Assembly (NCBI GenBank): GCA_965656085.1 | Contig: CBFHJA010000024.1 | Span: forward strand, 494 to 64,493 | Direction of reading: 5' to 3' | DNA: 64,000 nucleotides | DNA from: an uncultured Aliishimia sp. | Lineage (GTDB): Bacteria > Pseudomonadota > Alphaproteobacteria > Rhodobacterales > Rhodobacteraceae | Shown here: one piece after another, positions 6,480 to 63,300 of the stretch | Layout of the letters: each line of letters begins with the position of its first letter | Numbering within the stretch: position 1 is the first letter of the stretch | Translations under genes and position numbers: made by a program | Notes under the pieces: model-generated | Databases searched by the model: none | Told to the model about the DNA's origin: nothing | The model's input: the letters and a program-made list of their open reading frames with translations, nothing else

Positions 6480-7053
6480 TTTCGTGGTTCGCAAGATGCA
6501 GTTGGTGCTCGAAGAGGTGCGCCATGATGGCGGGCCCGCGCCGGAGACACCGCGCCGGTTGGGGGCGATGCTGGCCTGCGTGAAGAACCCGTTCGCGGGG
6601 CGCTATGAGCCGGATTTGCAGAGCGCGATGGAGGATCTCAAGCCGCTGGGCGCGGAGATGTCAGAGCGGCTGATCGCGGCGCTGGGCGGCAAGGACGCGG
6701 TGGATGGCTATGGCAAGGGGGCCATCGTGGGCAGCGCCGGAGAGCTGGAACATGGCGCGCTGTGGCATGTGCCGGGGGGCTATGCGATGCGCGGATTGCT
6801 CAATGAATCCAAAGCGATCGTGCCCTCCTGCATGAAGCTCGGCGGGGTCGGCTCGCGGCTCGATCTGCCCTTGGGCCACATCAACGCAGCCTATGTGCGC
6901 AGCCATTTCGACGGTATCGAAGTGGGGCTGCCGGACGGGCCGAAACCCGACGAGATCGTCTTTGCGCTGGCGATGTCCTGCGGAGGGCGGGTGCAGAGCC
7001 GCATGGGCGGTCTGGAGGCGTGGGATGTAAAGGGCGAGGATGGGCTGAGATAG
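6472..7053 (+). CDS. amino acid synthesis family protein (PF06684-like)
   Basis: 193 aa with NPFAGRY..., GYGKGAIVGSAGELEHGALWH and DLPLGHINAAYVRSHFD blocks typical of the AA_synth family. [17 protein letters not shown]. 8-nt overlap with the upstream gene. Confidence 0.7.
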   Translation: MPDFVVRKMQLVLEEVRHDGGPAPETPRRLGAMLACVKNPFAGRYEPDLQSAMEDLKPLGAEMSERLIAALGGKDAVDGYGKGAIVGSAGELEHGALWHVPGGYAMRGLLNESKAIVPSCMKLGGVGSRLDLPLGHINAAYVRSHFDGIEVGLPDGPKPDEIVFALAMSCGGRVQSRMGGLEAWDVKGEDGLR

Positions 7054-7378
7054 TTAACGCGGCGAACGTTGCGTGGCTTCAAATTCGCGAAAAACGTGAT
7101 TTCGGGCGTTAACGGCATAAAAACAAGGTACATACGGTGTATGGCTCCGCGTATGGCACCTGTACATACACTGTACATACAAATTCCGATTCGTTCCGCG
7201 ATTTGAAAAGGTTAAAGCACCGCACGGTGGGCGCGCGTTAACCTTTTGGGCCGAGTGGCCAAAGTGTGCAAATTGCCCACCCCACACAGACCTACGCCGA
7301 TCCACCGGGCACCCCGCCCCTGTTTTCGTTTGGTCAAAAATATCGTGTGGGGGTAGGGGAGTGAAACTCCCCCACGCG
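7052..7378 (+). repeat. mosaic intergenic repeat, copy A (TIR-bounded core 7053-7243 + REP 7264-7295 + T-run/hairpin module 7296-7378)
   Basis: Aligns along its length with the copies at 30440-30780, 43712-44050, 54284-54637 and 63024-63300. GTTAAC at 7054 and 7108, GCGTTAACC at 7235-7243. Five phased units at 7128, 7139, 7151, 7162 and 7173. Confidence 0.9.
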
Positions 7379-7395
7379 CCAAAAGCGTGTCCCGA

Positions 7396-8007
7396 TCAGT
7401 GCGCGACGCTGCGGCGGGCGCGGCGGGCCAGAAGGCCGAAAGCGCCAAGGCCCGCGAGCAGCATCGGCAGACCGGCGGGCAGCGGAACCGGGGCGGCGGC
7501 GCTGCCGGTGTTCAGGACGATCCGGTCGTCATTGTGGCTCGTTAGGATTTTGGTCACGGACAGCCCATCCTGAATGCCTAGGCTGTCGAGGGTTTGTCCG
7601 GCGAAGGTCATGGACCCGGAAATCAGGTCCCCGGCCACGTAGCCCCGGGGCAGGTAAAGCCGGGTGTTGAGATAGCCGAACGTGCTTCCGGAATTGCTAG
7701 TGGCCGTGGCAGCACCGCCCGGGCCGAAACCGACAAAGCCGCCCCCGTTGGCGAAGGCTTCATAACCGTTGATGAAGCTCCGAAACCAAGCGTTTCCGCC
7801 CGTAACGAGATCGGCCCGGGTCGAGGTAATGCTGGTGGCGCGGAGCAAGCTGCGATCCACGTCGATGGTGCCGTTATAGCGGGCCACGACATCGTTTCCT
7901 TCCTCGGTGATATTGATCGTGACGACCGCGTCGGCCGGGGCGGTGGTCATTAGCAGGGACAGGGCGCAAAGACCGCTGGCGAGGATGGTTTTGATACGGT
8001 TGTTCAT
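7396..8007 (-). CDS. secreted protein with C-terminal VPLPA-CTERM sorting signal
   Basis: 203 aa with an N-terminal signal peptide (..LLMTTAPADA). The C-terminus, VPLPAGLPMLLAGLGAFGLLARRARR, is VPLPA motif + TM helix + basic tail. Confidence 0.8.
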   Translation of the reverse strand: MNNRIKTILASGLCALSLLMTTAPADAVVTINITEEGNDVVARYNGTIDVDRSLLRATSITSTRADLVTGGNAWFRSFINGYEAFANGGGFVGFGPGGAATATSNSGSTFGYLNTRLYLPRGYVAGDLISGSMTFAGQTLDSLGIQDGLSVTKILTSHNDDRIVLNTGSAAAPVPLPAGLPMLLAGLGAFGLLARRARRSVAH

Positions 8008-12605: not shown

Positions 12606-12670
12606 GGTGGGCAATCTGCCCACCATGCCGCCATGTTACCGGGTTAAGGTGGGCAAATTGCCCACCCTAC
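12602..12670. repeat. REPIN-like doublet of two inverted REP palindromes
   Basis: GTAGGGTGGGCAATCTGCCCACC (12602-12624) and GGTGGGCAAATTGCCCACCCTAC (12648-12670) are in inverted orientation. The GTAG/CTAC heads contain the TAG stops of glpR (12603-12605) and bchJ (12667-12669). Confidence 0.9.
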
Positions 12671-15017: not shown

Positions 15018-15126
15018 TGTCCAGACCGCTGGACAGGCGATTCATGCCCCGTACGCCGGGCAAACCTTCCGTTAACCTTTTCCCGACCAAATGCCTGCCC
15101 TAGGCTGCGCCCAAAGGAGAGATGCC

Positions 15127-16872: not shown

Positions 16873-16896
16873 GGTGGGCAAAATTGCCCAGCCTAT
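16873..16896. repeat. solo REP palindrome (degenerate)
   Basis: GGTGGGCAAAATTGCCCAGCCTAT, the same family as 12602-12670. Confidence 0.75.
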
Positions 16897-18722: not shown

Positions 18723-18760
18723 GTGGGCAATTTGCCGGAAGGCCCACCTTGCGCGCCTAC
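18723..18760. repeat. REP copy with internal insertion
   Basis: GTGGGCAATTTGCC-ggaagg-CCCACC-ttgcgcg-CCTAC. The terminal CTA (18757-18759) is the TAG stop of the sulfotransferase gene on the minus strand. Confidence 0.7.
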
Positions 18761-23605: not shown

Positions 23606-23685
23606 TGCGCGAGCGAGAATTCCATTCTCGCGCTCTTGGGGATATTTTTGACCAAACGAAAACAGGGAAGTGGGCGCTTGGGCGC
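23606..23685 (+). repeat. GC-hairpin + GGATATTTTTG-CAAA-GAAAACAGGG module (solo copy)
   Basis: Hairpin GCGAGAAT-tcc-ATTCTCGC (23613-23631), then GGGGATATTTTTGACCAAACGAAAACAGGG (23637-23666). Confidence 0.85.
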
Positions 23686-27107: not shown

Positions 27108-27275
27108 CGGGGAAGGGGGCTGCCGCCCCCTCGGCCTTTGGCCTCCCTGGGCTCCGCCCGTTCAGGTCTCACAGGCTCCCCCGGAGCCTGTGCCGCAAAG
27201 CGGACCGACCTTCACCCCCCGCGGATATTTTTGTCAAAAGGAAAACAGGAATTGGGGCTTGGTGGGGCGGTTGCG
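27108..27275 (+). repeat. GC-hairpins + GGATATTTTTGTCAAAAGGAAAACAGG module (solo copy)
   Basis: Hairpins GGGGGC-tgcc-GCCCCC and CAGGCTCC-cc-GGAGCCTG, then GCGGATATTTTTGTCAAAAGGAAAACAGGA (27220-27249). Directly downstream of hpaD. Confidence 0.85.
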
Positions 27276-30415: not shown

Positions 30416-30439
30416 CGTTTTGAATGTGGTTCCGCTCGC

Positions 30440-30780
30440 TTTGCGATCGGCAGAGGGGCGCGCCTTCGGCGCGCGGGGGAGCTCTGCTCCCCTCACCCCT
30501 CGGGATATTTTGCGCCAAAGGAAGACAGGGGCGGGGCGCCCAGGATGGCGACGTGGGACTCTGTGGGGTGGGCAATTTGCCGACCATGCCCAAATGGTTA
30601 ACGCCGACGCACCGAACGGTGCGTTAACCCGTGAACGAATCCAAACCGAGCCATACAGGTGCCATACGCTTTGCCATACGCGGTGCCATACACCTGCCAC
30701 ACCTTGTTTTTATGGCGTTAACCCGCGTTTCGGGCGTGTCGCGCGATTTTGAGGTGTTGCGTGCGGTCGTTGGGTTAACC
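30440..30780 (-). repeat. mosaic intergenic repeat, copy B (inverted orientation: hairpin/T-run module 30440-30545, REP 30566-30586, TIR-bounded core 30596-30780)
   Basis: GCCATAC units at 30650, 30661, 30673 and 30685. GTTAAC at 30597, 30624, 30717 and 30774. Confidence 0.9.
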
Positions 30781-30839
30781 ATCTCCCTTGTGAGCCCACT
30801 CGATAAGTGACACGCTGAGGCCAACAAAGGGAGATACCC

Positions 30840-31919
30840 ATGACGCATGACAGCATTCGCCGGACCACCGGGCGTGGCCAGACCTACGATTCCTTGCTCG
30901 ACACGGTCGGCAACACACCTGCGATCCGGATCAACAACCTCGCCCCCGAAGGCGTGGAACTCTATGTTAAAGCAGAGTTTTTCAACCCCGCCGCCTCCGT
31001 GAAGGACCGCCTTGCGCTGGGGATCATCGAAGCCGCCGAGCGCGCCGGGGTGCTGAAGCCGGGCCAGACCGTGGTCGAGGCCACCTCCGGCAATACCGGC
31101 ATCGGGCTTGCGATGGTCTGCGCGCAGAAAGGCTATCCCCTCGTTGTGACCATGGTCGAAACCTTCTCCGTGGAACGCCGCAAACTGATGCGCATGCTTG
31201 GCGCGAAAGTTGTGCTGACGCCCAAGGAAGAGAAGGGTTTTGGCATGTATAACAAGGCGGTAGAGCTTGCCGAGGCCAATGGCTGGTTCCTTGCCTCGCA
31301 GTTTGAATCGCAGGCCAATGCCGATATCCACGAGGCCACCACCGGTCCGGAAATCGTGAATGATTTCAAGGACAAGAAGCTCGATTATCTGGTCACCGGC
31401 TACGGCACCGGCGGCACCGTGACCGGCATCGGGCGGGTATTGCGCCGCGAGCGGCCCGACACGAAAATCATCCTCACCGAGCCCGAAAACGCCGCCCTCA
31501 TCGGGTCCGGCACCGCGCAGGGCCGCACCGAGGCTGGCGGGCCAGCCCATAGCCACCCGGCCTTCAACCCGCACCCGATTCAGGGCTGGACCCCAGACTT
31601 CATCCCGAAGGTCTTGCAGGAGGCCATCGACAGCAAATTCTACGACGATCTGATCCCGGTCGCAGGCGCCGATGGCATCGCATGGGCGCGGCGGCTGGCG
31701 AAGGAGGAGGGGATTTTCACTGGGATTTCAGGTGGTTCTACCTTTGCCGTCTCACAGGATGTCGCCAAGACGGCCGCGCCCGGGTCGGTGATCCTCTGCA
31801 TGCTCCCGGACACCGGCGAGCGCTATCTGTCGACGCCGATGTTCGATGGGGTCGAGGCGGAGATGAGCGACGAAGAGCGCGCGATTTCGGCCTCGACGCC
31901 GGGCTATCAGATGGGGTGA
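30840..31919 (+). CDS. cysK: cysteine synthase A-family PLP enzyme
   Basis: 359 aa with VGNTPAIRIN, KAEFFNPAASVKDR (PLP lysine) and TSGNTGIGLA motifs. Carries an internal ~35-aa insertion relative to the enterobacterial CysK I remember. Confidence 0.8.
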   Translation: MTHDSIRRTTGRGQTYDSLLDTVGNTPAIRINNLAPEGVELYVKAEFFNPAASVKDRLALGIIEAAERAGVLKPGQTVVEATSGNTGIGLAMVCAQKGYPLVVTMVETFSVERRKLMRMLGAKVVLTPKEEKGFGMYNKAVELAEANGWFLASQFESQANADIHEATTGPEIVNDFKDKKLDYLVTGYGTGGTVTGIGRVLRRERPDTKIILTEPENAALIGSGTAQGRTEAGGPAHSHPAFNPHPIQGWTPDFIPKVLQEAIDSKFYDDLIPVAGADGIAWARRLAKEEGIFTGISGGSTFAVSQDVAKTAAPGSVILCMLPDTGERYLSTPMFDGVEAEMSDEERAISASTPGYQMG

Positions 31920-31920
31920 C

Positions 31921-31990
31921 GCGCCTATGGCGCGTTCTGGGGGTCCACCCCAGACCCGGGGATATTCATAGCCAAAGGAAAACAGCAAGG
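31921..31990 (+). repeat. GC-hairpin + degenerate GGGGATATTCATAGCCAAAGGAAAACAG module (solo copy)
   Basis: Hairpins GCGCC-tat-GGCGC and CTGGGG-gtccac-CCCAG followed by the module. It ends 12 nt before the next gene's start. Confidence 0.75.
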
Positions 31991-35282: not shown

Positions 35283-35400
35283 CTGCGCGTCCGGCCGGGG
35301 GGGCGCGCTGCGCGCGCGCTGGAGGCTCTGCCTCCAGACCTCCGGAATATTTTTGTCAAAAGGAAAACAGGGGCGCAGGCCAGAGCGGGTGAAGGCCGGA
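35283..35400 (+). repeat. GC-hairpins + GGAATATTTTTGTCAAAAGGAAAACAGGGG module (solo copy)
   Basis: Hairpin GGAGGC-tct-GCCTCC, then CCGGAATATTTTTGTCAAAAGGAAAACAGGGG (35342-35373). Lies in the divergent helicase/dipeptidase region. Confidence 0.85.
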
Positions 35401-43711: not shown

Positions 43712-44050
43712 GCGGGGGGACGCGCCTGTGGCGCGTTGCGAGGGCTCTGCCCAAGCCTGCCGCGCCAGCGGCGGGCGACGTCCGGCAGGTGCTTGTCACG
43801 CTGCAAGCGTGCCTTTGGCACGACAGAAAAGCTGCCGGGAGGACCACCATGTTCAAAGGTTAATGCGGCCCCACCGCACGGTGCTTTAACACCCTCATTT
43901 CGCGGAACGAATCGTGATTTGTATGTACAGGTGCCATACGCTTAGCCATACGCCGAGCCATACACCTGCCAGACCTTGTTTTTATGGCGTTAACGCCTGA
44001 AATCAGGTTTTTCGTGATCCTGAAGCCGCGCAACGTTCGGTGCGTTAACC
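43712..44050 (-). repeat. mosaic intergenic repeat, copy C (inverted; TIR-bounded core 43857-44050 preceded by a different GC-rich module)
   Basis: Units GTATGTAC at 43921 and GCCATAC at 43933, 43945 and 43957 (12-bp period). GTTAAC at 43989 and 44044. The left part carries AGCCTGCCGCGCCAGCGGCGGGCGACGTCCGGCA, also seen at 39086-39119. Confidence 0.9.
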
Positions 44051-44270
44051 TTTTGCGCCGCCCTGTGGGGCCGCCGGACGCGGCGCGACATCGTTGCTTG
44101 CCCTTCCCCTCGTGCCCCGCCTATAACGCGGCCATGCTGAACCACCGCTGCATACCGCGAATTACAACCCCGGCGCTCTGAAAGCCAAAGAGCCGCCGGG
44201 CCAAGGTGCTTGAGGACCCTCGCACCGCCGCACCCATTTTCTCACAATGCCGACCCTGAAGGACGCCCCC

Positions 44271-47165: not shown

Positions 47166-47184
47166 CGTGGGCAATTTGCCCACC
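47162..47184. repeat. solo REP palindrome
   Basis: GTAGCGTGGGCAATTTGCCCACC. The GTAG head contains the ileS TAG stop (47163-47165). Confidence 0.85.
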
Positions 47185-49519: not shown

Positions 49520-50446
49520 TCAGCCGGCGCGCGGATGGGCTTTGTCATAGACATCCATGAGGCGGGCGGAATCGACCGCCGTGTAGACCTGTGTCGTGCT
49601 CAGGCTGGCATGGCCGAGCAGTTCCTGGATGGCACGTAAGTCCCCGCCTGCATTGAGCAAATGTGTGGCAAAGCTGTGCCGCATGGCGTGCGGTGTGGCG
49701 CTCGACGGTAGCCCGAGTTGCATCCGCACATCCTGCATGACACCGGCCACGCTGCGCGGCGAGAGCGCGCCGCCGCGGATCGCGCGGAAGAGCGGGGCTT
49801 CGGCCTCGCACGGATAGGGGCAGAGGGTCAAATAGGTGCTGACGGCCTCGCGCGCCACCGGCAGGACCGGCACGAGACGCTCCTTATTGCCCTTGCCGAT
49901 GATCCGCAGGGCCTCGCCGAGCGGGGCGTCGTGCCCCTTCAGCGACAGCGCCTCGGACACGCGCAGCCCGCAGCCCCACATCAGCGTCAGCACCGCCACG
50001 TCGCGTGCGCCGACCCACGGATGCCGGTGTTGCGCTCCAGCGGTTTCGATCATCTCGTGGGCGGCGTCCACACTCAGGGGGCGCGGAAGCTTGCGCTCGA
50101 ATTTCGGCGCGCGGGCGGACAGAACGGCGGTTGCATCGAAGTCCTCGCGCTCGGCCAGCCAGCGGTAAAAACTCTTTACGGCTGAGAGTTTACGGGCAAG
50201 ACTTCGCGCGCCAACACCGCCTGTGCGGGTGCGCGACATCCAAGCGCGCATGTCGGGCAGGCTGACACGGGCCAACGCGCCGAGACCCTGCGGGCCGCCC
50301 TGGTGCTCGGCCATGAAGGCGAGAAATTCAGTTACATCGCTGGCATAGGCCGTCAGGGTGCTGGGTGCCGCACCCTTCAGCGCGCGTTGATGGTCCAGCC
50401 AGTCCGACAACGCCCCCCGCGCCGCGTTTGACAGGGCAAGGCTCAT
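49520..50446 (-). CDS. xerC: tyrosine site-specific recombinase XerC
   Basis: 308 aa with catalytic R...HxxR...Y (..ATPHAMRHSFATHLL.., ..LLGHASLSTTQVYT..). ATGA-coupled to the upstream DUF484 gene, the classic chromosomal xerC context. Confidence 0.88.
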   Translation of the reverse strand: MSLALSNAARGALSDWLDHQRALKGAAPSTLTAYASDVTEFLAFMAEHQGGPQGLGALARVSLPDMRAWMSRTRTGGVGARSLARKLSAVKSFYRWLAEREDFDATAVLSARAPKFERKLPRPLSVDAAHEMIETAGAQHRHPWVGARDVAVLTLMWGCGLRVSEALSLKGHDAPLGEALRIIGKGNKERLVPVLPVAREAVSTYLTLCPYPCEAEAPLFRAIRGGALSPRSVAGVMQDVRMQLGLPSSATPHAMRHSFATHLLNAGGDLRAIQELLGHASLSTTQVYTAVDSARLMDVYDKAHPRAG

Positions 50447-51153
50447 GACAGCCAGCGGCGCATCGCGCGCTCGAAGACGCCAGCGAAAAAGGTCAGTAAA
50501 TCCGTGCCTTGCTGGGGCGAGAACATATGTGGATCTTCCGATCCGAGCACCAGCAGACCGGGCAGGCGGCCTTGGCCGAGATCGAGTTTTAGGCAGGCTT
50601 CCGAGCGGATCCAGTCCGCCTTCGTGCCATAGACGAAGCTCGACCCCGATTGCACCTGCCGCAGACTGACCGGGCGCGGCGTGCCAGCGCGGCCCTGGTT
50701 GATATAGGCATCGCAATAGCCCGCGCGGGCGACGGCGATCACGTCGCTGAGACGATCGAGCACGGAGTCCTGATCCTCCTGTGCAGATTCGAGCACCAGC
50801 CTGACGGCATCGAGGCGCAGGATATCGCTGACATCTCCTGCGAGATTGCGCAGAAACGGCTCGAAGTCGACCGGATCGAGCAGGCTGAGAATCGCGCGGT
50901 GAACCTGATTGGTGCCGGCAAGGTTCTCATAGGCCGCCGCGATCACCGAGCGGTGGGTATCTTCAAGACGGTCGAGGCGGGTTTCCATCCGCTCCATCGC
51001 GATGCCCCGCAGATCGACGATATTGCCACCCATCGCGCGCTCATTCGCCGCGATAAGGGCCTGCATAAGGTCCTGATCTTCAAGGATAACGTCTGGACTT
51101 TGGATGATCGCCTCACGCGTGGCGGCATCCATTTTCGCGCTTTTGCTCATCAA
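50443..51153 (-). CDS. DUF484 family protein
   Basis: 236 aa GAF-like protein, conserved immediately upstream of xerC in proteobacteria. Confidence 0.75.
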   Translation of the reverse strand: MMSKSAKMDAATREAIIQSPDVILEDQDLMQALIAANERAMGGNIVDLRGIAMERMETRLDRLEDTHRSVIAAAYENLAGTNQVHRAILSLLDPVDFEPFLRNLAGDVSDILRLDAVRLVLESAQEDQDSVLDRLSDVIAVARAGYCDAYINQGRAGTPRPVSLRQVQSGSSFVYGTKADWIRSEACLKLDLGQGRLPGLLVLGSEDPHMFSPQQGTDLLTFFAGVFERAMRRWLS

Positions 51154-51352
51154 TATGCCGGGGTCTTTGCGCCCCGCCTTTGCCTCGTGTTTTCCGATCT
51201 ATAGCACGGGCGGAGCGCCTGTGACTCGCATTTTCGCGTGAATGTCAGGAAAATACGCCAATTCTGTGACATCGGTGCTCGGAGTGCGAGAGGGCATCCT
51301 GATTTGCGCGTCAGGTGTCGGCGCGCAAGGCGTTGGCTGGGCTGGCCATGGA

Positions 51353-52006
51353 TCAGACGATCTTGATCCCGGCGCTCGCGGCATCTTTCAGGAATGCGTC
51401 CAGCCCCTTGTCGGTCAGCGGATGGCTGGCCAATTTGCGGATCACTTCGGGCGGCGCGGTCATCACATCCGCCCCGATCCGGGCGCAGTCCTGCACATGG
51501 TTCACCGACCGGATCGAGGCTGCGAGGATCTCGGTCTTGAAATCATAGTTGTCATAGATCGTGCGGATATCTTCGATCAGTTCCATCCCGTCGAGATTGA
51601 TATCGTCGAGCCGTCCGATGAAAGGCGAGATGAAGCTCGCGCCTGCCTTGGCGGCCAAAAGCGCCTGATTGGCCGAGAAGCAGAGCGTCACATTGACCAT
51701 GCGACCCTCGTCCGAGAGTACTTTGCAGGCCTTCAGCCCGTCCCATGTGAGCGGCACCTTCACCGCGATATTCTCAGCGATTTCAGCGAGTTTGCGTCCT
51801 TCGGTGATCATTGCCTCGGCGTCTGTCGCGATTACCTCGGCGGAAACCGGGCCAGCGACCAGATCGCAGATCTCCTTGGTCACTTCCAGAATGTCGCGCC
51901 CGGATTTCGCGATCAGGGACGGGTTCGTGGTGACCCCATCGACCATCCCCAGATCGTTCAGCTCGGCGATGGCGTCGATTTCGGCGGTGTCGACGAAGAA
52001 TTTCAT
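51353..52006 (-). CDS. tal: fructose-6-phosphate aldolase / short (type 3B) transaldolase
   Basis: 217 aa starting [32 protein letters not shown], with ..[10 protein letters not shown].. (Schiff-base Lys region). GAGGGAG RBS. The 950-aa ORF-track ORF is an antisense over-extension across priA. Confidence 0.92.
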
Positions 52007-52057
52007 GGGCGCGCTCCCTCGGTATGGCTTGGCCTTTTCCGAGCGAGGCTTTACCCC

Positions 52058-54277
52058 ATGCGGGTGATGTCCGAAAGCCCCGATCCCGGTCCCGACTTTT
52101 TTCCCGAAGGTGCGCGCGTGGGCGTGCTGACCACCCAGCCGCTGGACCGGGTGCTGGATTACCGCGCGCCCGAAGGTGGGTGCTGGCTCGGGGCCTTCGT
52201 CGAGGTGCCGCTTGGGCCGCGCAAAGTGATCGGCGTGGTTTGGGGACCCGGGGCGGGGGATTGGGATGCGGGCAAACTGCGGCAGGTAAACCGTGTTCTG
52301 GATGTCGCCCCGATGCGGGACGAAATGCGGAGTTTCCTCGAAAAGGCAGGGGCTTACACCCTGACGCCGCTCTCGGCGATGCTGCGCCTCGCGACCCGTG
52401 CGCCGGGGCTGAGCGACCCGCCGTCGATGCGCAAGGTCTACCGCGCCGGGGAGGGCGTGCCGGATCGGATGACGGAGGCGCGGGCGCGGGTGCTGGAGGT
52501 GCTGGCGGTGCATGGCGGCCTTGGGTTCACCCTCAAGGAACTGGCCGATCATGCGGGTGTGACCCCGCAGGTGGTCAAGGGGCTGGTGAAGCACGGAGCA
52601 GTGGCCGAGGAGGACGCGCCGCGCGACACGGCCTTCCCGCGGCTTGATCCGGCGCTGCCGGGCAAGGCGCTCACCGCGGCCCAGAGCGCCGGGGCAGAGG
52701 CGTTGAAAACAGCCGTGAAAACAGCCGATTACGGCACGACCTTGCTGCGCGGCGTGACCGGGTCGGGCAAGACCGAGGTTTATCTCGAAGCGGTGGCTGA
52801 AGGCCTCAGGATCGGGCGGCAAGCCCTTGTTCTGCTGCCGGAAATCGCGCTCACGGCGGAGTTCATCGCGCGCGTTGAGACTCGCTTCGGTGCGCGGCCT
52901 GCCGAGTGGCATTCGGGGGTGACCATGACCGAGCGGCGGCGCGTCTGGCGCATGGTCTCTCAGGGCAGCGCGCAGTTTGTGGTCGGCGCGCGATCCGCGC
53001 TTTTCCTGCCGTTTCAGGACCTTGGCCTTATCGTCGTCGATGAGGAGCACGACCCCTCCTACAAGCAGGAGGACGGGGTGCTCTACAATGCGCGCGACAT
53101 GGCGGTGCTGCGCGCGTCGATCTGCGGCGCGCAGGTGGTGCTGGCCTCGGCCACGCCGAGCCTTGAGAGTTGGGCCAATGCGGAGGCCGCGAAGTATCGG
53201 CGCATTGATCTGGAATCGCGCTACGGGCCTGCGGTGATGCCGCAGATGCGCGCTATCGACATGCGCGACCAGAGCCTGCCCGCGAACCGTTGGATTTCTC
53301 CTGCGTTGCAAGCGGCTGTCATGGAGCGCATTGGAAAAGAAGAACAATCCCTGCTGTTCCTCAACCGGCGTGGCTATGCGCCGGTGACGATCTGCCGGGC
53401 CTGCGGGCACCAGATCGGCTGCCCCGATTGTGACGCGCGGATGGTCGAGCACCGGTTCCTGAAACGCCTGATGTGCCACCAATGCGGCGAGACCGCGCCG
53501 ATGCCCGAGGCCTGCCCGGCCTGCGGTGTCGAGGGCAAACTCGCGCCTGTGGGGCCGGGGGTGGAACGGTTGTCCGAAGAGGCGGCGGAGTTGTTTCCGG
53601 AGGCGCGGATCGCGGTGCTCTCGTCGGACCTGTTCGGCTCGGCGCGGGCGCTCAAGGCGGAGATCGAGGCCATCGCGGAGGGCGGGGCGGATATCATCAT
53701 CGGCACGCAGTTGGTGGCAAAAGGTCATAACTTTCCGAAGCTTACGCTGGTGGGAGTGATCGATGCCGATCTTGGGCTGCAAGGCTCCGACCTGCGCGCC
53801 GCCGAACGCACGTTCCAGCTGATGCGGCAGGTGGCGGGGCGCGCGGGCCGCGCGGAGACCCCCGGCACGGCGCTCTTGCAGACTTTCCAGCCCGAACATC
53901 CGGTGATCCGGGCGATCTTGGCGGGCGACGAGGAGGGGTTCTGGCGGGCCGAGGCCGCCGAGCGCGCACAGGCCGGATCGCCGCCCTACGGGCGCATGGC
54001 CGGGATTATCGTCTCGGGGGGAGATGTCGGCCAAGTCTTTGATATTGCGAACCATCTGGCCCGCAACGACGGCCCGCTCCGGCGCGTGGACGCGCAGGTT
54101 TTCGGCCCGGCCCCGGCCCCCATCGCGCGGGTGCGGGGGCGGCACCGGGTGCGGCTTCTGGTCAAGGCGCCCAAGGGCACCGCGTTGCAACCGGCGCTGG
54201 CGCAATGGGTGGGGCAGGTACGGCTCAAGGGCGATTTGCGGCTCGCGGTGGATATCGACCCGCAGAGCTTCTTGTGA
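52058..54277 (+). CDS. priA: primosomal replication restart helicase PriA
   Basis: 739 aa with Walker [16 protein letters not shown], and the Cys-rich zinc region [17 protein letters not shown]...CHQCG...CPACG. Confidence 0.92.
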
Positions 54278-54283
54278 CGGGTA

Positions 54284-54637
54284 AAGGTTAACGCAGCGCG
54301 CGTTGCGTCACGTGGCCGCCATGGAAAATCGTGATTTCAGGCGTTAACGCCATAAAAACAAGGTGTGGCAGGCGTATGGCCCGGCGTATGGCTGTGCGTA
54401 TGGCAAGCGTATGGCTCGTTTTCGATTCGTTCCGCGATTTGGAATGGTTAAGGCACCGTACGGTCTTCCAGCGTTAACCTTTGGAACATGGTGTCCCTCC
54501 CGGCAGATTGCCCAACCTACAGAATCCCACGTCGATCCACCGGGCGCCCCGCCCCTGTCTTCCTTTGGCCAAAAATATCTCGGAGAGCGCGAGAGGCAGA
54601 GCCTCTCGCACGCGCCGCAGGCGCGTTCCCTCCGAGC
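54284..54637 (+). repeat. mosaic intergenic repeat, copy D (best-preserved: TIR-bounded core 54286-54479, degenerate REP 54501-54520, T-run module and nested hairpins 54536-54637)
   Basis: GTTAAC at 54287, 54343 and 54473. GTATGGC at 54374, 54386, 54398 and 54409. CCCCTGTCTTCCTTTGGCCAAAAATATC, then nested hairpins ending 3 nt before the stop of the minus-strand gene. Confidence 0.92.
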
Positions 54638-54639
54638 TG

Positions 54640-55107
54640 TCAGTTCAAGTCAAACACCAGCCCATACGTGAAGGTCGCATCGACGCTTTGCCCGCCTGCG
54701 GGGATCGCCTGCACGAAGGCGTTGCGGTAGCGAAACTGCAGCCCCGCGATGGGCACGATATCGCCGATCGCATGGGCGAAGCGGTCGCCATCGCCGGGAT
54801 AAAGCGCGAGCGCTGCGAACACATCAATGCCCCAGTCCGGGCGCCGGGTCAGCGGGTAGGCGGCATTCACCGCGACTGAAAAGCCGTCATAACTGTTGCG
54901 GAAAGCGCCGAAGCCCAGATCGACCCGTCCGGACAGAGCCGCGCCGTGCCAGTTGACGAACACACCGGGATTGAATTCCTCAAGGCCAAGGCTGCTCTCG
55001 GCGCCCACATGGGAGGAGCCGAGCAGGACCGCGATGCTGTCCGGCCCGGCCGGAGCGGCGGCGGGAAGGAGCGAGAGTGCGCAGGCGCACAGCGTTCTGT
55101 GAAGCAT
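54640..55107 (-). CDS. hypothetical secreted/outer-membrane-like protein
   Basis: 155 aa with a signal-peptide-like N-terminus (MLHRTLCACALSLLPAAAPA). Its alternating hydrophobic pattern and aromatic-rich C-terminus suggest a small beta-barrel. No family recognised. Confidence 0.55.
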   Translation of the reverse strand: MLHRTLCACALSLLPAAAPAGPDSIAVLLGSSHVGAESSLGLEEFNPGVFVNWHGAALSGRVDLGFGAFRNSYDGFSVAVNAAYPLTRRPDWGIDVFAALALYPGDGDRFAHAIGDIVPIAGLQFRYRNAFVQAIPAGGQSVDATFTYGLVFDLN

Positions 55108-59160: not shown

Positions 59161-59183
59161 GGTGGGCGGATTGCCCAGCCTAC
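59161..59183. repeat. solo REP palindrome (degenerate)
   Basis: GGTGGGCGGATTGCCCAGCCTAC. Confidence 0.75.
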
Positions 59184-63016: not shown

Positions 63017-63023
63017 GCGGGCA

Positions 63024-63300
63024 AAGGTTAACGCGGCGTGCGCAGGCGGGCGGGGTGAGAGGTCAAACTCCCCGAAATCCGGGTTAACGCCAGTAAAGCA
63101 AGGTGTGGCAGGCGTATGGCGCGGCGTATGGCTAAGCGTATGGCACTTGTATGGCTCGTTTTTGATTCGTTCGCGGGTTAAGGCAGCGTGCGGTGGGTCT
63201 GCGTTAATCTTTTGAGCAGGCTGGGCGGTGGTCCTCCCGGCAAATTGCGCACCCGACGGGGGCCGACGTCGATCCGCCGGGCGCGTTCCGCCGCTTGATC
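63024..63300 (+). repeat. mosaic intergenic repeat, copy E (core 63026-63209 with degenerate right end GCGTTAATC, degenerate REP 63237-63254, no T-run module)
   Basis: GTTAAC at 63027 and 63083. GTATGGC at 63114, 63126, 63138 and 63149, the same 12/12/11 spacing as copy D. Confidence 0.88.

Follow-up and report, generated by a model that had tools for sequence, protein, structure and literature searches.

A 64,000-nucleotide stretch of DNA from an uncultured Aliishimia sp. (in the following, the window), an ordinary piece of Roseobacter-group chromosome, contains five copies of a short intergenic element. We consider it fairly probable that this element is a lineage-specific, nonautonomous element resembling miniature inverted repeat transposable elements (MITEs), bounded by terminal inverted repeats (TIRs) and inserting beside repetitive extragenic palindromic (REP) palindromes. 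The five copies had been noticed in a sequence-only reading of the window. They are real, and their limits were refined with a profile built from the five aligned copies and searched over the entire 64 kb, which returned five cores with E values of 1e-53 to 1e-63 and no sixth one. The core is ~197 bp long (197-206 bp), and its copies are located as follows.

Copy A, 7047-7249, plus strand: nhmmer E 2.5e-58; left end overlaps the TAG stop codon of the AA_synth gene
Copy B, 30590-30786, minus strand: nhmmer E 1.1e-56; left end ~55 nt upstream of the start of a PALP-enzyme gene at 30840
Copy C, 43853-44055, minus strand: nhmmer E 2.1e-63; between a DUF697 gene (Pfam) and ileS
Copy D, 54280-54485, plus strand: nhmmer E 2.5e-63; TIR-bounded element of ~200 bp
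Copy E, 63020-63215, plus strand: nhmmer E 1.1e-53; between a gene for a hypothetical protein (208/239 aa) and ybgC

All copies are intergenic and have no intact open reading frame (ORF) in common, as the same reading stated; no start-to-stop ORF is shared by the five copies in any of the six frames. Like MITEs, the element is thus short (<~500 bp) and non-coding. A small ORF on the reverse strand, starting from Shine-Dalgarno-like GGGAGG and ATG, was considered and dropped, since its peptides are unrelated or absent across the copies. The genes on either side of copies A and D are convergent, and those around copies B, C and E are in tandem. The orientation of the element relative to flanking genes is not constant, and both orientations occur.

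The evidence that the core is an insertion comes from orthologous loci of related genomes, in which it is missing (percentages are identities of flanking proteins).

Locus A, relatives L030 (flanking protein 97%), L031 and L032 (both 93%): AA_synth stop codon runs directly into the REP
Locus D, relative L029 (PriA 88%, downstream convergent gene 72%): 84-nt gap without similarity to the element
Locus E, relatives L033 (86%) and L034 (83%): distance to ybgC only 71 and 126 nt, compared with 331 nt in the window; no core

Relative to L030, L031 and L032, copy A presents itself as a clean insertion of ~197 bp, and in the alignment to L030 the limits of the gap coincide with TTAACGC...GCGTTAACCTTTTG. 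The MITE-like mobile origin proposed in the sequence-only reading, which had suggested a search for empty sites, is supported by these loci: a dispersed, multi-copy, non-coding family of discrete inserts with inverted termini is absent from the orthologous sites of relatives at A, D and E, three of the five loci. Altogether 42.5 kb of the relatives' DNA yielded neither a match to the core nor a single GTTAAC. The gap downstream of priA in L029 (2378-2461), which lacks copy D, carries three spaced 12-bp palindromes of the form TGACCGnGGTCA (GTGACCGTGGTCA, GTGACCGTAGTCA and GTGACCGCGGTCA), a motif different from the core.

The limits of the insert are occupied in all five copies by inverted termini of 12-13 bp, AAAGGTTAACGC and GCGTTAACCTTT, which are built on GTTAAC. 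The termini are complementary, and copy B has a matched change at both of them (ATGG...CCAT). The terminal motif AAGGTTAACGC (<=2 mismatches) is matched 21 times in the window versus 6.3 times expected, and 16 of the 21 matches fall inside cores: at both ends of every copy, in an internal palindrome and at a subterminal site near the right end. Of the 16 GTTAAC sites of the window, 14 fall inside the cores, which together amount to ~1 kb. TTAA occurs three to four times per core despite a ~4-fold depletion in the genome (12 observed outside the cores versus ~51 expected). A restriction system was considered as the cause of GTTAAC scarcity outside the cores and rejected, because the general depletion of TTAA explains it. 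A solitary CCGTTAACCTTTT at 15066-15082, intergenic and upstream of an IF-2B-family gene at 15091, corresponds to the right terminus of the core and holds one of the two GTTAAC sites that do not fall inside cores; it could be what is left of a copy that was excised or has decayed.

The internal architecture of the core is described here on copy D.

54283-54294, plus strand: left terminal inverted repeat AAAGGTTAACGC, pairing with 54471-54482
54295-54339, plus strand: variable segment ending in a small hairpin (CGTGATTTCAGGCG); mean column identity 0.46-0.56
54340-54364, plus strand: internal palindrome GGCGTTAACGCC followed by ATAAAAACAAGGT; mean column identity 0.93
54363-54415, plus strand: array of five units (GTGTGGC, then four of GTATGGC) starting at 54363, 54374, 54386, 54398 and 54409, spacing 11-12-12-11 bp
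54421-54433, plus strand: box TTCGATTCGTTCC with GANTC at 54424-54428; GATTCGTTC is invariant in five of five copies
54444-54482, plus strand: right end, with subterminal ATGGTTAAGGC, an imperfect hairpin and the terminal repeat GCGTTAACCTTT (54471-54482)

The order given earlier, TIRs, a second GTTAAC, a GTATGGC array and a box, holds for all copies with some corrections. At the left end the inverted terminus is confirmed, and the CGTTGCG assigned to it is limited to copies A, C and D. The segment described after the array retains GATTCGTTC with its GANTC in five of five copies; CGCGATTTGGAA, ascribed to the same segment, is deleted in B and E. The terminus that closes the proposed CACCG..CGGTG hairpin is indeed the inverse of the left end. 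As for the hairpin itself, its pairing is imperfect in D and E, and compensatory changes are missing. Each core contains exactly one conserved GANTC, placed within (T/C/G)GATTCG. In the window as a whole, 53 GANTC sites are observed versus ~200 expected from base composition, a ~4-fold depletion consistent with CcrM-type methylation in an alphaproteobacterium.

Array units of the type G[CT]GTATGGC number five in every copy. Copies B, C, D and E share a spacing of 11-12-12-11 bp, copy A has 11-12-11-11 bp (mean 11.5 bp), and GTATGGC-N5-GTATGGC occurs nine times in the window versus 0.00 times in shuffled sequences. The regular 11-12-bp spacing claimed before is therefore present, but the idea that all units lie on one face of the DNA is only approximately true: on relaxed 10.5-bp B-DNA, units 1 and 5 are ~0.4 turn apart, so that the array forms a spiral. 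At least four direct repeats at about one helical turn, with a conserved motif and a variable spacer, are also the hallmark of iteron and parC arrays. An alternative unit, GTACATAC, replaces the usual one in A (units 1, 4 and 5) and in C (unit 5). Its reverse complement is GTATGTAC, and it thus contains the GTATG core in inverted orientation.

Pairwise identity among the five copies is 54-77%, and by this measure the copies are old. Their conservation is arranged in blocks. Column identity reaches 0.93 in GGCGTTAACGCCATAAAAACAAGGT, 0.93 in GATTCGTTC and ~1.0 in the G[CT]GTATGGC columns of units 2-3, versus 0.25-0.5 in the ~40-bp variable segment and the 3-nt spacers, while the spacing remains identical in four copies. 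This pattern indicates that specific blocks and their phasing have been under selection or constraint. Two subfamilies, A/C/D and B/E, are set apart by an indel of 10 bp and by the small hairpin just left of the internal palindrome, whose loop reads GATTTC in A, C and D and GAAAT/GAAAC in B and E. The stem of this hairpin (54329-54342, 63080-63093 and 30715-30730) is kept, as if the structure had been flipped between the subfamilies.

In all five copies, homology extends beyond the right terminus and takes in a REP-like palindrome, which belongs to a separate family. In copy D it is the following.

54486-54520, plus strand: REP-like palindrome with CGGCAGATTGCCC at 54501-54513; GTAG head on the minus strand

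Its motif, GTAGGGTGGGCAATTTGCCCACC(ATG) on the other strand, has 23 matches in the window versus 6.7 expected. It was located beside cores at 7266, 30570, 54501 and 63238 and without a core at 16877-16889, 18725-18737, 47169-47181 and 59164-59176; an inverted pair at 12609 and 12651 (12609-12663), 42 bp apart, is REPIN-like. The core itself is not an imperfect palindrome of 20-40 nt with a GTAG head, whereas the adjoining GTAGGGTGGGCAATTTGCCCACC is; the core is REP-adjacent, not a REP. All five cores sit 3-32 nt from a REP tail, and five to six REPs of the window are unoccupied. In the relatives L030, L031 and L032 the REP follows the AA_synth stop codon with no core, and at locus A the REP is thus pre-existing. 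From the adjacency in all five copies together with this pre-existing REP, we infer that insertion is targeted next to REPs.

The sequence-only reading recognised no described family in the element, and wider searches agree with it: neither Rfam, plasmids, phages, contigs nor the literature searched offered one. Rfam gave no match at the gathering threshold for the whole window and none at E<=5 for copy D. Plasmids and phages searched by blastn with 54280-54640 contained nothing similar, a scan of viral contigs found nothing, and an exact 22-mer scan of GTDB species genomes retrieved one match, by chance, within a coding region. The literature on the motifs of the element, and on MITEs or REPs in Rhodobacterales and Roseobacter, contained nothing relevant. 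When metagenomes were scanned for a pair of adjacent units, 24 loci came up; the element was in none of them, and several were coding HTPGH-type repeats. Eight human-gut contigs among them (L005, L006, L007, L011, L013, L016, L021 and L025) bear tandem GCGTATGGC arrays with 11-12-bp spacing. These arrays are unrelated in origin to the element of the window and provide analogy, not homology, because the search pattern demanded the motif. Contig L007 has two of them (1835-1885 and 2005-2075), one immediately upstream of and one within a gene for a CopG-type ribbon-helix-helix (RHH) protein. That gene adjoins one for a 618-aa helix-turn-helix protein, and the whole resembles the operators or iterons of a mobile element. 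Consensus sites of known regulators were compared with the copies by eye, namely CtrA (TTAA-N7-TTAA), alphaproteobacterial LexA (GTTC-N7-GTTC), the EcfG promoter (GGAAC-N16-17-CGTT) and PpsR (TGT-N12-ACA); none fitted consistently across the copies.

We propose the following scheme for mobilization. The GTTAAC-containing ends would be recognised by a transposase or recombinase whose gene lies outside the window, elsewhere in the genome, and the same enzyme would place the element beside REP hairpins. The GTTAAC palindromes and the phased 9-mer array are probably protein-binding sites. An iteron-like or cooperatively bound array, as in the sequence-only reading, is suggested by the pattern of conservation, with motifs and phasing retained and spacers drifting. 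The presumed binding blocks, that is three to four palindromes or half-palindromes of the GCGTTAACGC type, five G[CT]GTATGGC sites at 11-12-12-11 and GATTCGTTC, would most likely constitute an assembly platform for the mobilising enzyme and an accessory factor; alternatively, a host protein could have co-opted the array. Such a role in binding would explain why blocks and phasing persisted while the rest of the element drifted. A bolder version, which we regard as rather unlikely, sees in the element a mobile carrier of a cooperative array (GCGTTAACGC palindromes and G[CT]GTATGGC) recruiting a dedicated RHH or winged-helix protein, either as an undescribed REP-targeting, duplication-free transpososome or by host co-option. 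If it were true, each insertion would plant a regulatory or nucleoid-anchoring node beside a housekeeping gene.

Several points weigh against a REP-targeted MITE-like element. Target-site duplications, which MITEs usually display and which the sequence-only reading had suggested looking for, are not visible at any of the copies. The bases immediately outside GTTAAC are inverted, not direct (AAAG...CTTT), and the intergenic DNA of the relatives is too diverged to place the junction to the base. Among window ORFs screened with Pfam there is no transposase or insertion sequence (IS) with matching ends, and the only recombinase is a Xer-type tyrosine recombinase adjoining priA. The spacer between core and REP is homologous in C, D and E, and core and REP may have spread together by recombination or gene conversion (co-duplication in C, D and E) instead of transposition. 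With five copies divided into A/C/D and B/E, mosaic recombination could mimic block conservation. Protein binding, finally, is purely inferred.

Mosaic processes are central to the explanation that the element is a decaying, functionless repeat, with block conservation an artefact of gene conversion or mosaic recombination and with 12-nt units produced by slippage. Only five copies can indeed be compared, and they have a clear subfamily and mosaic structure (the 10-bp indel and loop variant in B/E, the alternative units in A/C) and are embedded in intergenic DNA that is a patchwork of other repeats. Slippage would nevertheless copy the spacers as well, yet these vary inside one copy and from copy to copy, whereas the 9-mers stay the same, so the pattern points to selection on motif and phase. 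Moreover, each copy has five units at a fixed spacing, unlike a variable number tandem repeat, and conversion tracts are not expected to match motif boundaries at 12-bp resolution. Mere decay is highly improbable in our judgment. Constraint would equally be expected if the element were mainly a host cis-regulatory or nucleoid cassette, with the array and GCGTTAACGC palindromes bound cooperatively by a chromosomal protein and the copies kept for gene regulation or DNA structure. RHH or OmpR/PhoB-type winged-helix proteins, both associated with direct repeats at ~11-bp periodicity, are its candidate binders. Motifs and the exact 11-12-12-11 phasing kept while spacers drifted, the inversion of some units and the single conserved GANTC per copy in a genome ~4-fold depleted of it would suit such a cassette, and so would the positions of B, ending ~55 nt upstream of a gene start, and of C and E, upstream of ileS and ybgC. 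But orientation and distance to genes are inconsistent, A and D have nothing to regulate between their convergent genes, and the flanking genes are unrelated in function. A further point for the cassette is that gut GCGTATGGC arrays abut a CopG-type RHH start codon, which shows that arrays of this kind do serve as operators; the comparison is again one of analogy, as a motif-demanding pattern retrieved them. Since the window has no candidate binder or RHH homologue, the core has no promoter-like site and the relatives manage without the element at the same loci, we find a primarily regulatory cassette unlikely.

The third alternative is based on RNA. REP/BIME, ERIC and BOX elements stabilise or terminate upstream mRNA, and the element could act similarly as part of a 3' untranslated region or as a small RNA, either through its right-end hairpin and a long-range pairing of its termini or by titrating an RNA-binding protein with GUAUGGC. 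Read on the coding strand, copies A, D and E begin 0-6 nt past a stop codon. A 13-bp pairing of the termini is possible, there is a short T-run beyond the right end, and the adjoining parts of the mosaic have a clear hairpin- or terminator-like character. Nevertheless, RNA covariation, another check put forward by the sequence-only reading, is not supported: RNAalifold on the five copies gave a covariation term of +0.64, with stems broken without compensation. The Rfam match it had also proposed to look for is missing even at E<=5. Cores fold with z-scores of only -1.1 to -1.8 on either strand, and those of the right-end hairpin are 0.02 in D, where it is not more stable than shuffled sequences, 0.61 in A and -1.84 in E. 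A sigma70 promoter scan of the core detected no promoter-like site, and an intrinsic terminator scan gave nothing but a weak terminator-like signal within the array. Relative to the genes that flank them, copies B and C are antisense. An RNA motif would be lost in the inverted units (GTACATAC); with GTATG on the other strand, these fit recognition of double-stranded DNA better. Mini-hairpins around each GTATG unit are possible in D and not kept in B and E. A described family of structured or small RNAs was rejected on these grounds (no Rfam match, covariation or promoter, z only -1.1 to -1.8), and a function at the RNA level in general appears very unlikely.

Compared with known systems, the REP-adjacent, MITE-like element is a new family of a familiar bacterial intergenic repeat type. 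Bacterial MITEs include Correia/NEMIS elements in Neisseria, RUP in Streptococcus pneumoniae and ERIC/IRU in enterobacteria. Like them, it is 100-300 bp long, non-coding, multi-copy and TIR-bounded; it lies in intergenic DNA, often just after stop codons and in either orientation, and orthologous sites of relatives may or may not contain it. Some MITEs carry host-factor sites, such as the integration host factor site of Correia elements. It differs in having no visible target-site duplication and no sequence similarity to anything searched, in carrying five phased 9-mers and repeated copies of its own terminal motif, and in the block-wise conservation of copies that are old (54-77% identical).

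Similarity to REP-based mosaics, represented by BIMEs/RIP of E. coli, pneumococcal BOX and rhizobial RIMEs, lies in the constant position of the core beside a GTAG-headed REP-like palindrome, with which it forms a modular 3' intergenic mosaic together with a hairpin/terminator-like module. Contrary to these mosaics, the core is not a REP and possesses its own GTTAAC-based inverted termini. It shares with BOX end modules around a tandemly repeated middle, but the number of its units is fixed at five, whereas that of boxB is variable. IS1397/ISKpn1 and IS110-family members such as IS621 are insertion sequences that target REPs; unlike them, the core sits beside the REP and not inside its loop, and neither a RAYT gene nor an IS was seen in the window.

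The array has parallels of its own. In parC of plasmid R1, ParR binds two sets of five 11-bp repeats, pSM19035 contains heptad arrays bound by omega protein, and OmpR/PhoB-type tandem sites recur at ~11-bp periodicity. The element resembles such RHH and iteron arrays in its 7-9-bp motif, directly repeated four to five times, its 11-12-bp spacing, its variable spacers and its occasional inverted units. In the gut contigs, as in RHH operators, GCGTATGGC arrays flank a CopG-type RHH gene, their likeness to the array of the window following from the search pattern. Unlike iteron and parC arrays, the copies are dispersed in a chromosome within a TIR-bounded element. They have no cognate binding-protein gene (ParR, Rep or RHH) beside them, and no replicon context or plasmid match was found.

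Should our interpretation be correct, the element would represent a repeat family not described before from the Roseobacter group, a marine clade of ecological importance for which the literature searched contains no description of intergenic repeats or MITEs. It would also be a clean case of a TIR element landing beside REP palindromes, and its phased motifs, kept long after insertion, are the expected look of a mobile element exapted into binding-site arrays. It opens no new mechanism without a binding protein or an autonomous partner. On the practical side, such repeats break short-read assemblies (contigs L030 and L032 of the relatives end inside the REP) and are at risk of misannotation as small ORFs or small RNAs.

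The DNA to the right of copy D (54486-54637) is not part of the element; together with the REP it comprises a double-hairpin, terminator-like module serving the convergent gene.

54521-54580, minus strand: conserved module ending in GATATTTTTGGCCAAAGGAAGACAGGGGCGGGG, part of the 'ext' repeat
54580-54636, minus strand: two adjacent GC-rich tri-loop hairpins, terminator-like, directly after the stop codon (54640-54642) of a 155-aa gene

In copy D the double hairpin folds with -44.2 kcal/mol (z -3.98) and is a terminator-like match in the terminator scan. In the other copies the stem sequences differ, and pairing is always kept. A conserved stretch of ~60 nt accompanies the hairpins, and on the strand of the adjacent gene the conserved GAUAUUUUUGnCAAAGGAAAACAGGGG comes after them. 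The module lies near cores at 7320-7396, 30416-30500 and 54555-54640 and, by nhmmer with the 'ext' repeat, alone at 23607-23680, 27209-27265, 31915-31985 and 35300-35375. Double-hairpin modules after stop codons thus resemble terminator cassettes of one family, which share the conserved GAUAUUUUUGnCAAAGGAAAACAGGGG tail. The sequence-only reading had remarked that the element or its mosaic begins 0-24 bp after a stop codon. For this there is an ordinary explanation, because one side of the mosaic is the terminator-like module of the neighbouring gene.

Proteins encoded in the window have their best matches in Tateyamaria, Aliishimia and related Roseobacter-group genomes (~80-89%), and its GC-skew shows no signal of a replication origin or terminus. 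The genes screened include a xanthine-dehydrogenase-like gene, an FGGY-family kinase with an FAD-oxidoreductase (glpK/glpD-like), bchE/bchJ-like genes, MttB, ileS, a Xer-type recombinase, priA, ruvAB and ybgC; priA, ileS, ybgC and the genes for a PLP enzyme and AA_synth flank copies of the element. The Xer-type tyrosine recombinase (49520-50716, minus strand) lies just upstream of priA (51242-54277, plus strand). The priA ORF reaches 272 codons upstream of the start in the public protein P0121 (739 aa, 100% identical), and a homologue of 1016 aa, P0123, covers 97% of this long form.

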